Source: Vibrio alginolyticus NBRC 15630 = ATCC 17749 (GTDB taxonomy: Bacteria; Pseudomonadota; Gammaproteobacteria; Enterobacterales; Vibrionaceae). Taken from it: 32,000 nt of DNA. This document shows, one piece after another, positions 10,410 to 17,717 of this stretch (positions are counted from its first letter, which is position 1; every line of letters starts with the position of its first letter). The DNA lies in the NCBI RefSeq assembly GCF_000354175.2, contig NC_022349.1:1020001-1052000 (forward strand). The letters run 5' to 3'. The notes under the pieces are model-generated. The model saw only the letters and a program-made list of their open reading frames with translations. It made no database searches and had not been told where the DNA came from. Made by a program: the position numbers and the translations under genes.

Positions 10410-11327
10410 TTATTGAGCGTATTTTATAGCTTCAATAACTGTATCGTCTAAGTTTTTATTATATAAATGTTTCTTACATCCGATTTTAACCTGAAGCTCT
10501 AAATTAGATATGTTTTTGTACAAATCATGGTATAGATTATTAAAATCCATAGTGTTTATATCATGAACCAATATAGTAAAGATGCTATCATTTAGTCTGG
10601 CTATATAATTATCACCTCTTTGAAAATTTTTTAAAATTTCACATAAATTGTATAAATTACTCTTATAAGAATCTCCACTCTCATCCAATATACCCAGTGC
10701 ATCAATAGCAATTATATATAATGGAACACCAACGGTTCTGACATCGCTCTGCTCTTTTTCTAAAAATATAGACCAACCTAATCTATTAAAAAAACCAGTC
10801 TCAGCGTCCTTAAACTGACTTGGGAGGTGATACATTTGTCTACTCGCCGCGGTATTTCTCTCTATTTCCATACACAGCATGTTAGACAAAAGCTTTGAAA
10901 TAAGCTCTACCGTGGCTTGCCCATCAGATGGAATAGATTTATGAACTGCAGTATCTATAGCACACAATGTTCCAAACAACTCCCCATCAGGGTAACAGAT
11001 AGGGATTCCAACATAAGAGCAAATACTTAGCTGTTGGTTTATAGGTGCACATTTGTAATTTTCAATAGCTTGCACAGAAGGAGCCCACCTAGGCCCGTTA
11101 CCTTGTACCATTCGGCTACAAATCGAATCGCTCCAAACCAACGTCGATAGCTCCTTAATATTGTACTTGTCGCTTTCTACCTGCAAAATGATCCAATCTT
11201 CTTCATTTTTTCTTGTTAACATCCAGGCGCCAAATCCATACTTTTTATGAAGATACTTCAGTGTAAAGCGACTAGCTTCTTCGAAGGAGTCGAAAGGAGC
11301 TTGATCTATCGTATTTGAGTTAAACAT
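10410..11327 (-). CDS. GAF domain protein with degenerate (catalytically inactive-looking) GGDEF domain
   Basis: The N-terminal GAF-like region reads WMLTRKNEEDWIILQV...WSDSICSRMVQGNGP...YVGIPICYPDGELFGTLCAID. The GGDEF-domain entry motif is DAETGFFNRLGW. At the GGDEF position the sequence is RLNDSIF (aa 244-250, nt 10578-10598). The RBS AGGAGA lies 5 nt upstream of the ATG, and only 20 nt separate it from the kinase stop. Confidence 0.8.
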   Translation of the reverse strand: MFNSNTIDQAPFDSFEEASRFTLKYLHKKYGFGAWMLTRKNEEDWIILQVESDKYNIKELSTLVWSDSICSRMVQGNGPRWAPSVQAIENYKCAPINQQLSICSYVGIPICYPDGELFGTLCAIDTAVHKSIPSDGQATVELISKLLSNMLCMEIERNTAASRQMYHLPSQFKDAETGFFNRLGWSIFLEKEQSDVRTVGVPLYIIAIDALGILDESGDSYKSNLYNLCEILKNFQRGDNYIARLNDSIFTILVHDINTMDFNNLYHDLYKNISNLELQVKIGCKKHLYNKNLDDTVIEAIKYAQ

Positions 11328-11347
11328 CCATATCTCCTAAAGGAACG

Positions 11348-16135: not shown

Positions 16136-17337
16136 TAACGACTCTCACTATTAAAGTTAAATTCATTAATTACATTTATTATTTCACTAGACTTAGTTGG
16201 TCTGTAATAAAAATATCCCTGTCCTATTTCACAACCCTTACTAATTAGAAACTCCTCCACCTCAATGCTTTCAATACCTTCTGCAACAACTGACATTCCT
16301 AGCGCTTTTCCCATTGCTATACTTTGCTCAACAATCGCAGCAGACTTAATGTTAGTGAGACAGTTAAAAACAAACTCTTTATCTATTTTTATTTCATTAA
16401 ATGGGATCGTATGTAACTTAGCTATTGATGAGTACCCAGTACCAAAGTCATCGATAGATAACTTAAATTTCATAATTCTCAACCTGAGCATTTGAGTATC
16501 GACAATAGTCGGGCTGGAGCTTATTGCTGTTTCAGTTAACTCACAAATAATGTTTTCATGTGGAATACCATACTTATCAACCGTTCTACAGAGCCAATTG
16601 GGAAAGTCATTATTTTCTAAAACTTTCCCTGATATATTAAACGCATATGTTAGATCACAAAAAGAGTCATAGTTTTCTGATATTTCTTTCAAGGCCTTAT
16701 CAATAACATTCTTCGTAAGATCAAGTATGATAGAAGGAGACCTTTCTGCTGTGGGAATAAAACTATCCGGTGGGATCAATGAACCTTGGTCATCACTAAT
16801 TCGTGCTAAAATTTCTACACCTTTCATCTTTCTTGACGCCAGATCTACTTGAGGTTGAAAGTAAGCTTCAATTTTCTGTGCTTCTAGGTATTTAACTAGT
16901 TCATCTTCAGGCAGTTCGAAAAGTTGTGTTTCTGTACGTTTAAGAGTGGGTAACGCTTCAATTCCCTCTATGATATTTTGAACCACTTTAAACGTTATAG
17001 GTTTTTCTACACACCCTATAATGTTCAAGTCATAAAAGCGCGCTAAGTTAGATGTAGATGCTAAGATTTCTTGTTCTTCACTACTAATGATTATGACAGC
17101 ACCTGGAAACTTCATAGTACCTAAAAACATCAGGACCTCGAAGCCATCCTCTACTGGCATATTCAAGTCACAAAAAATTACGTCGAATTCGTCAAACGCC
17201 ACAAGCTCCTTTGCTTTCTTGCCATTTTCAGCTTCTAAAACTTTCTTTATACCTAAGTTATTCAAACAGATCGTTAATGTTTTCCTGACCACTGGCTGAT
17301 CGTCAACTACGAGTATCTTATATTCTGAAGTTTTCAC
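16135..17337 (-). CDS. Response regulator c-di-GMP phosphodiesterase (REC-EAL; RocR/PvrR-like architecture)
   Basis: The REC reads KILVVDDQPVVRK...DVIFCDLNMPVEDG...EKP. The EAL domain has an intact catalytic set: VEILAR, N in FNISG, ELTE, DDFGTGYSS, KIDKEF, AEGIE and GQGYFY. The six-frame ORF reaches a TTG at 17418. The GTG at 17337, preceded by GGGGAGGA 4 nt upstream, is the more likely start. Its stop overlaps the kinase ATG (TAATG, 16133-16137). Confidence 0.88.
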   Translation of the reverse strand: MKTSEYKILVVDDQPVVRKTLTICLNNLGIKKVLEAENGKKAKELVAFDEFDVIFCDLNMPVEDGFEVLMFLGTMKFPGAVIIISSEEQEILASTSNLARFYDLNIIGCVEKPITFKVVQNIIEGIEALPTLKRTETQLFELPEDELVKYLEAQKIEAYFQPQVDLASRKMKGVEILARISDDQGSLIPPDSFIPTAERSPSIILDLTKNVIDKALKEISENYDSFCDLTYAFNISGKVLENNDFPNWLCRTVDKYGIPHENIICELTETAISSSPTIVDTQMLRLRIMKFKLSIDDFGTGYSSIAKLHTIPFNEIKIDKEFVFNCLTNIKSAAIVEQSIAMGKALGMSVVAEGIESIEVEEFLISKGCEIGQGYFYYRPTKSSEIINVINEFNFNSESR

Positions 17338-17717
17338 GCTATCCTCCCCTTCAGAAAGATGTGAGCCACTAACTACAAGTACTTCACTTCTATCAATTTT
17401 CAGTGTAGATGCGAGCAACGGTTTATGCCAAAATTACGCGTGATTACATGTGCTGCTCTCAAAAATGACGTATGTTTTGGTTCAACTTTACTAAATACAA
17501 ACGCAACAAAACGTGGAGGGCTCTCAGCGCAAGTAATCAAAACTTTTGTCTCGGCGTCGTATTTTTGTCACGCGCCAAACATTTGATTACACAGCACTCA
17601 CATCACAATTACATATCCCCAACATGTGTGGGGTCACAATCATTCATTTCGTTGTTCGCAGTGCGCATTTGTGCACATTAATATTGTGCAGTTCGTTCCA
17701 ATTACACTTATAAATTT

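Follow-up and report, generated by a model that had tools for sequence, protein, structure and literature searches.

The 32,000-bp stretch of Vibrio alginolyticus NBRC 15630 = ATCC 17749 chromosome 1 analyzed here (NC_022349.1, positions 1,020,001 to 1,052,000; hereafter the window) carries a strain-variable genomic island at window positions 9803-17488, a conclusion strongly supported by the comparison of occupied and empty loci. The three genes of this island, all on the minus strand, probably encode a self-contained phosphorelay that sets the hydrolysis of cyclic di-GMP (c-di-GMP) in response to light, O2, and a periplasmic ligand. V. alginolyticus is a marine and aquaculture pathogen, and c-di-GMP governs its biofilm formation and motility. 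The predicted products are a response regulator with receiver (REC) and EAL phosphodiesterase domains, a membrane-bound unorthodox hybrid histidine kinase, and an accessory protein with GAF and degenerate GGDEF domains. A full-text literature search within a limited library found no paper describing this system. The general class, in which an unorthodox kinase feeds a REC-EAL protein, is already known; new are the natural tandem of light-oxygen-voltage (LOV) and heme-binding-type PAS modules in the sensor array, a conserved partner protein whose GGDEF domain is dead, the occurrence of the system on megaplasmids as well as on a strain-variable island, and the rewiring of the neighboring queD gene.

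The three minus-strand open reading frames (ORFs) were reproduced at 10410-11327 (305 aa), 11348-16135 (1595 aa), and 16135-17418 (427 aa from a TTG start), in the tight packing that a first-pass annotation of the window had described. The stop codon of the REC-EAL gene and the start codon of the kinase gene have one base in common in TAATG at 16133-16137 (context AGT CGT TAATG AAG), so that the proposed overlap could be read directly in the sequence. The kinase gene ends in TAG and is followed by a 20-nt gap, CGTTCCTTTAGGAGATATGG, that leads to the ATG of the GAF/degenerate-GGDEF gene; the motif AGGAGA lies within this gap, 5 nt 5' of the ATG, in agreement with the spacing and the separate ribosome-binding site annotated earlier. 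The 5' end of the REC-EAL gene had been placed at 17418 and has to be moved. The start codon is most likely GTG 17337, 81 nt downstream, rather than TTG 17418, judging from the ribosome-binding site directly 5' of the GTG (GGGGAGGA) and from the 400-aa product, which fits both the orthologs of other genomes (395-401 aa) and the commonest database form of the exact REC-EAL protein. Promoter-like sites in the window were found at chance level (28 found versus 26 expected) and the terminator scan of the window returned none on the minus strand; therefore, these scans cannot define the transcription unit.

The Pfam scan of the kinase identified three PAS-family stretches and the HisKA, HATPase_c, REC, and histidine phosphotransfer (Hpt) domains, all above the cut-offs. 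The H-box histidine, the N, G1, F, and G2 boxes, the receiver aspartate, and the Hpt histidine are thus all found on one polypeptide, as expected of an unorthodox (tripartite) kinase. The relay residues H975, D1387, and H1540, which had been numbered correctly in the first-pass annotation and assigned to a relay within one polypeptide, are invariant in all 26 full-length orthologs, as are the ATP-binding boxes N1088/N1092, D1123-G1127, F1137-F1140, and G1152-L1158 (N, G1, F, and G2, respectively) and K1442. Two hydrophobic segments (about aa 7-27 and 330-350) enclose a periplasmic domain of ~300 aa in the hydropathy profile. Each of the four cytoplasmic PAS modules terminates in DIT or DIS (residues 529, 672, 806, and 941) followed by a helical linker, and H975 lies 34 residues C-terminal to the last of these motifs (DIT at residue 941). 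The exact copy of this kinase in V. alginolyticus is named in the database only as a 'PAS domain S-box protein'.

The first two PAS modules carry the residues of photoreceptor and oxygen-sensor domains. The LOV module matched the solved structures of YtvA and of Pseudomonas LOV proteins with E-values of 1e-31 to 1e-33 and retains the motif GRNCRFLQG with the adduct-forming cysteine C464, which is present in 23 of the 26 orthologs. The flavin-contacting residues N496 and N506 (equivalent to N94 and N104 of YtvA) are invariant in all 26. The second PAS module matched the FixL heme-domain structures with E-values from 9e-28 (1D06) to 4e-23, and the DosP heme PAS more weakly (E 5e-9). H617 aligns with the proximal heme histidine (H200 of Bradyrhizobium japonicum FixL, BjFixL) in three FixL structures, and R637 (in GTPRKV) aligns with the distal arginine of FixL (in GIGRIV; BjFixL R220). 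In FixL, this distal arginine contacts bound O2. The kinase of the window and its close subclade keep all residues checked, namely C464, N496, N506, H617, and R637. Profile hidden Markov model (HMM) searches, proposed earlier as a check of the domain calls, and solved-structure comparisons back the LOV, heme-PAS, Hpt, and EAL assignments. These matches suggest that the LOV module binds flavin and senses blue light and that the FixL-type PAS binds heme and senses O2. A more specific idea, which we put forward tentatively, is that the kinase is a natural two-cofactor logic element in which flavin-LOV and heme-PAS jointly gate the relay according to the combination of blue light and O2.

The tandem itself was sought in a representative protein library with the sensor segment as query, which gave 276,364 matches, of which the best 150, mostly giant multi-PAS proteins, were inspected. 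A canonical LOV followed directly by a FixL-type PAS with both the histidine and the arginine occurred only in this kinase family among the best 150 of the 276,364 matches. The ranking threshold of ~254 bits would hide remoter tandems, and therefore the rarity of the tandem across all proteins is not established.

Several observations weigh against a light- and oxygen-responsive relay carried by a mobile block. The active-site glutamine of LOV domains (YtvA Q123, strand I-beta) is replaced by Ile527 here, in FIGIITDIT; across the 26 orthologs this position is Gln in 16, Ile in 4, Leu in 3, and Ser in 3. LOV signaling generally survives substitution of this glutamine but is often attenuated (PMC9098866). 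In the second PAS module, the position of the propionate-binding Arg206 of BjFixL is occupied by Lys623, with Arg622 adjoining. The heme histidine is retained only in the closer kinase subclade, which includes the protein of the window, and is gone in the more distant orthologs, and the LOV cysteine is gone in the V. tritonius group; therefore, these inputs are dispensable for the kinase family overall. The dCache and HAMP regions both score under the Pfam cut-offs in this kinase (29.3 bits versus 45 for dCache_1, E 8e-7; 23.5 bits versus 25 for HAMP). Of the five input modules annotated at first, LOV, the FixL-like PAS, and the two further PAS modules stood, and the Cache-like domain was recovered only below its cut-off. 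The scan of the individual orthologs detected Hpt in 26/26, dCache_1 in 22/26 (E up to 1e-3, best 7e-12), and HAMP in 20/26. The V. tritonius kinase adjoins a different receiver protein and no REC-EAL protein, and the kinase scaffold can therefore serve other outputs. Finally, the island was found to contain neither an integrase nor a transposase gene, no tRNA, and no terminal repeats, and nothing there explains its mobility.

The substitutions and losses in the sensor modules could be explained by LOV and heme-PAS being cofactor-less or signaling-dead relics that act as spacers or dimerization elements, with the actual cue being periplasmic or perceived by the other PAS modules or the GAF protein. 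Ile527 fits this explanation, as do the orthologs in which the cysteine (V. tritonius group) or the heme histidine (distant orthologs, P0003) was lost while the rest of the kinase was kept, and degenerate PAS modules are a very frequent feature of multi-PAS kinases, as the number of library proteins matching the segment illustrates. We nevertheless regard it as unlikely, since all five residues checked are kept here and in the close subclade, the kinase dN/dS of 0.10 indicates constraint, and naturally occurring LOV receptors in which Ile or Leu replaces Gln have been reported to function. The glutamine is missing from about 350 natural LOV receptors, most of which have Leu or Ile at this position, and those tested were functional (PMC9098866).

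The REC-EAL protein is the candidate output of the relay. Both of its domains were clearly recognized by Pfam (EAL, 4.5e-57; REC, 1.3e-19), and its best match among solved structures was RocR of Pseudomonas aeruginosa (3SY8), aligned over the full length with an E-value of 4e-48, which bears out the earlier remark that the system resembles RocS1/RocR. The receiver contains D12-D13, the phospho-acceptor D57, and K112. The EAL domain has the complete set of expected residues (E175, R179, N234, E266/E269, D296-D297, K317, E353, and Q373), and every catalytic motif aligns with RocR, so the catalytic set had rightly been called intact. The best NCBIfam model was PvrR (NF052596), at 227 bits versus a cut-off of 580 bits; the score is far under the cut-off, and therefore the REC-EAL protein, although identical in architecture, is not a PvrR ortholog. 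Its database name is 'EAL domain-containing response regulator'.

Full-length kinase orthologs (40-87% identity) have a patchy distribution in a few Vibrio species, Salinivibrio, Pseudoalteromonas luteoviolacea, Photobacterium atrarenae, Shewanella, and Hahella, and the genes around the cluster differ in every genus. At 8 of the 9 ortholog loci inspected, a REC-EAL gene lies directly upstream of the kinase gene, with an overlap of 1 to 4 nt or a gap of 2-32 nt (32 nt in Photobacterium), and the GAF/dead-GGDEF gene is present at 6 of the 9. In V. europaeus and V. coralliilyticus, the cluster is carried by plasmids of 419 kb and 324 kb, respectively. The V. europaeus plasmid pVeu-CECT8426 (NZ_CP064859.1, L099) bears a four-gene cluster ~5-7 kb from Rep/ParAB genes, with the REC-EAL gene annotated as 260 aa only in that record, and a homologous four-gene cluster is found on the V. 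coralliilyticus plasmid (NZ_CP120721.1). The V. tritonius branch has lost the LOV cysteine, the heme histidine, and the REC-EAL neighbor altogether.

Four of the nine loci encode an extra receiver protein beside the kinase, of 347-389 aa, with an unrecognized N-terminal region of ~230-260 aa and a C-terminal REC domain; in V. tritonius it is the sole neighbor. This second receiver, and the branched nature of Roc-type networks (PMC12051241), would suit an arrangement in which the Hpt domain mainly feeds receivers encoded elsewhere in the genome, with the REC-EAL protein draining phosphate or forming a side branch. Such an arrangement is improbable for V. alginolyticus: the second receiver is missing from this island without a remnant, and the REC-EAL gene is translationally coupled to the kinase gene, adjacent to it at nearly all of the ortholog loci, and intact in its catalytic residues. 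A decayed fourth gene in the 589-bp spacer at 9821-10409 was also considered and rejected, as tblastn with the extra receiver protein of the relatives matched nothing there. All ORFs in this left arm are short, and no RNA family was found by Rfam anywhere in the window, the left arm included.

The third protein was recognized by Pfam only through sub-threshold matches to GAF and GGDEF. An alignment-based AlphaFold model (pLDDT 92.3) contains both folds, so that the original GAF/degenerate-GGDEF call stands on structure, with Pfam support remaining below threshold. Foldseek returned the GAF-GGDEF cyclase Dcsbis (4ZMU) as the best fold match, along with PelD (4EUV), GcbC, DgcB, and other GGDEF structures. 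The third protein resembles Dcsbis and PelD in the succession of GAF, helix, and GGDEF fold, and PelD likewise has a degenerate GGDEF domain; however, Dcsbis has cyclase activity and the RxxD I-site of PelD is a c-di-GMP-binding site, whereas the third protein has neither the active-site motif nor the I-site. Its GGDEF motif reads NDSIF, the substrate-binding region carries a 4-aa deletion, and the GH motif is gone. The I-site position is RGDN here and KGDN, SESG, or SANC in the orthologs, versus RxxD in active relatives. All nine operon-linked orthologs have a degenerate GGDEF domain with the 4-residue deletion and without the I-site, whereas the GAF half is strongly conserved, with an invariant GTLCAID segment. 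The degenerate motif, the deletion, and the missing I-site together indicate that the third protein is neither a cyclase nor a PelD-type receptor; the latter role was ruled out by the missing RxxD. Most likely, the third protein is a sensor or adaptor that modulates the kinase or the phosphodiesterase without enzymatic activity of its own. Database records name it 'hypothetical', 'GGDEF domain-containing', or 'diguanylate cyclase'. That it is an active diguanylate cyclase, so that the operon would both make and destroy c-di-GMP in a push-pull manner like DosC/DosP, is very improbable: the fold match to Dcsbis, some of the database names, and distant homologs (30-38% identity) that retain RLGGDEF, the GH motif, and the RxxD I-site speak for it, but the motifs required are lost here and in every operon-linked ortholog. 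Canonical GAF-GGDEF relatives (32-34% identity), annotated as diguanylate cyclases, are also borne by small mobilizable Acinetobacter plasmids (6-167 kb).

In the mechanism that we propose from these sequence features, a periplasmic ligand would be perceived by the dCache-like domain, blue light by LOV, and O2 or another heme ligand by the FixL-type PAS, with the two further PAS modules and the GAF protein possibly contributing additional cues. The sensor signals would be summed along the helical spine of the kinase and would set autophosphorylation of H975, from which the phosphoryl group is predicted to pass through D1387 and H1540 to D57 of the translationally coupled REC-EAL protein. Phosphorylation of D57 would then change the rate of c-di-GMP hydrolysis by the REC-EAL protein, with either sign, and the GAF/dead-GGDEF protein may tune the kinase or the phosphodiesterase non-enzymatically. 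If LOV and heme-PAS do gate the relay jointly, as in the tentative two-cofactor idea, c-di-GMP turnover could differ, for example, between an oxic surface in sunlight and a biofilm that is dark or hypoxic, or the interior of a host.

The boundaries of the island were defined by comparison with empty sites. Homology to these ends at 9802 and restarts at ~17489 (V. diabolicus L003) or at 17554 (V. alginolyticus L088 and L096), and the insert 9803-17488 takes the place of ~70 bp of the ancestral spacer between queD and a methyl-accepting chemotaxis protein (MCP) gene. For the species comparison, 80 loci were fetched via the neighboring MCP protein, each species being represented by a single genome. 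In 78 other Vibrio species, queD (or a conserved sdaA/permease block) and the MCP gene border a short spacer, and no trace of the three island genes was found in that queD-MCP spacer. Among V. alginolyticus loci encoding an identical TpdA protein, 10 distinct configurations were distinguished, of which seven are empty, one has this island, and two have different cargo. Two of the empty-site loci were aligned with the window by BLAST, and their flanks share 99.2% identity with it. The locus L095 (CP014045.1) is 99.99% identical to the window, and the protein records of the window in V. alginolyticus are AGV16804-AGV16807. Vibrio sp. 11-4(1) has flanks 98.9% identical to the empty V. diabolicus reference, yet it carries the island at the same junctions. 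The synteny comparison suggested in the first-pass annotation therefore showed a block that is not universal at this locus and is absent from most of the near-identical V. alginolyticus strains sampled, and the horizontal acquisition postulated for the queD-MCP block is supported by the 78 species without it, by presence and absence among strains, and by its deviant composition. The interpretation given in the first-pass annotation withstood all of the computational checks that had been listed there as able to overturn it.

The GC content is 36.3% in the island, 43.7% in the rest of the window, and 47.5% in asnS, so the direction of the bias was anticipated correctly in the earlier estimate (28-37% versus 50%) and its size was overstated. 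At third codon positions (GC3), the island genes have 28-32% versus 36-48% outside; in other hosts, the homologous cluster has a host-like GC content. Between the two island copies, dN/dS of the three genes is 0.10-0.14, a constraint two- to threefold weaker than that on the flanking genes, and the island genes are therefore under purifying selection. The synonymous divergence (dS) between the V. alginolyticus and V. diabolicus-type copies is 0.55-0.86 for the island genes and 0.36-0.78 for the flanks; because the two are comparable, the island is old relative to the split of the two species, while still being polymorphic in both. In the comparison with locus L001, the low GC3 (28-32%) of the island genes at 10410-17337 persists despite the flank-level synonymous divergence. 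Those dS values would also suit a block that is ancestral at the locus and was lost elsewhere without horizontal transfer, as they exclude a very recent arrival, but we give this account hardly any credence, given that the 78 other Vibrio species share an intact spacer and the native queD start codon, which the island replaced, that related clusters are found in unrelated surroundings and on megaplasmids, and that the composition is atypical in this host lineage only.

The simplest mechanism for the spread of the island, as we infer it, is that occupied and vacant versions of the locus replace one another through homologous recombination in the conserved flanks. A search for terminal direct or inverted repeats at the junctions yielded only chance 8-9-mers. 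The short motif ACGCG(N0-3)TGATTA, described earlier as flanking the block, does occur twice in the window (0.05 copies expected), but each copy falls within the inserted DNA, at distances of ~460 bp and ~45 bp from the junctions, and the motif is missing from the V. diabolicus-type island; it was rejected as an att site, in keeping with the doubt voiced when it was first noticed.

The left junction falls within the first codons of queD, a housekeeping gene of queuosine synthesis, and the native N-terminus MKTELYKEF is gone together with the queD promoter region. The start codon is now TTG 9820, located in island DNA and preceded by AGAGG, and gives a protein of 123 aa; database annotations of queD range from 120 to 134 aa. 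The island operon is followed downstream by queD in the same orientation, and the interval separating them contains no predicted terminator; read-through expression is therefore possible, and queD could be partly co-regulated with the operon. Other V. alginolyticus strains have a different insert at the same queD-MCP site (L087, 12746-21716; L094, 12740-21716), encoding a 3485-aa protein that contains an LPD39 domain and two proteins, of 53 aa and 183 aa, for which Pfam returned no match. The left junction and the first 48-135 bp are common to this alternative insert and the island, and the site is therefore an insertion hotspot. Insertion at this hotspot has thus rewired a housekeeping gene at its 5' end.

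Among the known systems, the closest in architecture are Roc1 (RocS1, RocR, and RocA1) and PvrS/PvrR of P. aeruginosa, in which an unorthodox kinase with the domain order dimerization and phosphotransfer (DHp), catalytic (CA), REC, and Hpt is likewise paired with a REC-EAL protein. The PvrSR system is also island-borne, being located on PAPI-1 (PMC3842833). In contrast to both, the V. alginolyticus island encodes no DNA-binding partner such as RocA1 or RcsB, its periplasmic sensor is dCache-like rather than of the periplasmic-binding-protein (PBP) type, the kinase carries not one but four PAS modules in the cytoplasm (LOV and heme PAS among them), and there is an extra GAF/dead-GGDEF gene. The ArrS/ArrR system of Aeromonas veronii also consists of a stand-alone unorthodox kinase and a REC-EAL protein in an operon without a transcription factor, and both the Hpt-REC interaction and the phosphorylation-dependent inhibition of the phosphodiesterase have been demonstrated for it (PMC11841396). 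However, ArrS combines a single PAS with two periplasmic PBP2 domains and has no LOV, heme-PAS, or GAF accessory protein, and ArrS/ArrR is conserved chromosomally across Aeromonas, whereas the system described here resides on a strain-variable island.

The sensor arrangement is closest to that of the engineered kinase YHF, built from the LOV domain of YtvA and the heme PAS-B and kinase of FixL (Moglich et al. 2010), which is reported to respond cooperatively to blue light and O2 (cited in PMC6798134). In both proteins, LOV lies directly upstream of a FixL-type heme PAS on one kinase, with DIT-motif helical linkers. YHF is synthetic and soluble and signals to FixJ, whereas the kinase described here is natural, membrane-bound, and a hybrid with REC and Hpt domains; it also has two more PAS modules between the heme PAS and DHp, and Ile at the LOV glutamine position. 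The same physiological logic is found in enzymes with a sensor fused to EAL, namely DosP/PdeO (heme-PAS-EAL), SL2 (LOV-GGDEF-EAL), and BlrP1 (BLUF-EAL), whose EAL activity is controlled by O2 or blue light (PMC8846402). In contrast to these, the sensors of the V. alginolyticus system are located on the kinase and would reach EAL through a four-step phosphorelay.

How several signals are combined by tandem PAS modules on one kinase is an open mechanistic question, approached hitherto mainly with an engineered LOV-plus-heme chimera. The kinase family described here offers a natural case of LOV followed by heme PAS, together with variants lacking the cysteine, the glutamine, or the histidine for comparison. 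If its proposed two-cofactor gating is true, it would be the natural counterpart of YHF in the form of a transferable module, conferring its behavior on some strains only, with the periplasmic ligand and the GAF protein as further inputs. A strain-variable module that may tie c-di-GMP breakdown to light and oxygen could explain differences in behavior between strains, and the matched island-positive and empty-site strains make this idea readily testable. Coordinates of the features are collected in Table 1.

Table 1. Features of the island and its left neighbor queD in the window, with the extra receiver genes of related loci (positions in the last row are those of the loci named)
Feature	Position	Strand	Basis or remark
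Whole inserted block, 7,686 bp	9803..17488	none	homology breaks versus empty sites; low GC
Left arm of the island, non-coding, GC 34.8%	9821..10409	none	now the queD upstream region
GAF + degenerate-GGDEF accessory protein, 305 aa	10410..11327	-	sub-threshold Pfam, alignment, AlphaFold model
Unorthodox hybrid histidine kinase, membrane-bound, 1595 aa	11348..16135	-	Pfam, orthologs
Periplasmic dCache-like domain (aa 28-329)	15149..16054	-	sub-cut-off dCache_1; 22/26 orthologs; hydropathy
HAMP (aa 348-394)	14954..15094	-	23.5 bits versus 25; 20/26 orthologs
LOV (aa 420-532)	14540..14878	-	LOV structures; NCBIfam YtvA_fam match aa 419-548
FixL-type heme PAS (aa 555-675), putative	14111..14473	-	FixL structures; H617, R637
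Third PAS (aa about 691-809)	13709..14065	-	TIGR00229 aa 691-817; DIS at residue 806
Fourth PAS (aa about 830-944)	13304..13648	-	PAS_3 aa 852-931; DIT at residue 941
HisKA (H975) + HATPase_c core (aa 965-1191)	12563..13243	-	Pfam; invariant boxes
Internal receiver (aa 1339-1452; D1344, D1387, K1442)	11780..12121	-	Pfam, invariance
Hpt (aa 1508-1586; H1540 in AHGAKG)	11378..11614	-	Hpt E 3e-6, above cut-off; 26/26 orthologs
REC-EAL response regulator, RocR-like, 400 aa from GTG 17337 (most likely start)	16135..17337	-	Pfam, RocR 3SY8 alignment
REC domain of the REC-EAL protein	16969..17316	-	Pfam
EAL phosphodiesterase domain	16198..16902	-	Pfam, RocR alignment
Operon upstream region within the island	17338..17488	-	promoter-like site 17431 to 17402; motif copy 17436-17446
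queD, 5' end altered, 123 aa	9449..9820 (wider region 9449-9853)	-	TTG 9820 after AGAGG
Extra receiver gene in relatives	L083 12757-13902; L002 13738-14886; L085 11767-12810; L097 9843-11012		

Two further signaling loci were observed in the window. At 734-2981 on the minus strand, a 179-aa H-NOX (HNOB) protein gene adjoins the gene for a 566-aa hybrid histidine kinase, a pair of the nitric oxide-sensing type that is kept at the same position in most of the Vibrio loci fetched. The 571-aa EAL protein encoded at 7082-8797 on the plus strand scored 1033 bits for the c-di-GMP phosphodiesterase TpdA, versus the NCBIfam equivalog cut-off of 1000 bits. From the positions of the H-NOX/kinase pair, TpdA, and the island, three signaling loci lie within ~17 kb. 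In addition, 110 bp at 29422-29531, inside a 627-aa ORF (29037-30920), match a section of the MCP gene of related loci in the opposite orientation with 77-79% identity and probably represent the conserved signaling region of a second MCP-type gene.

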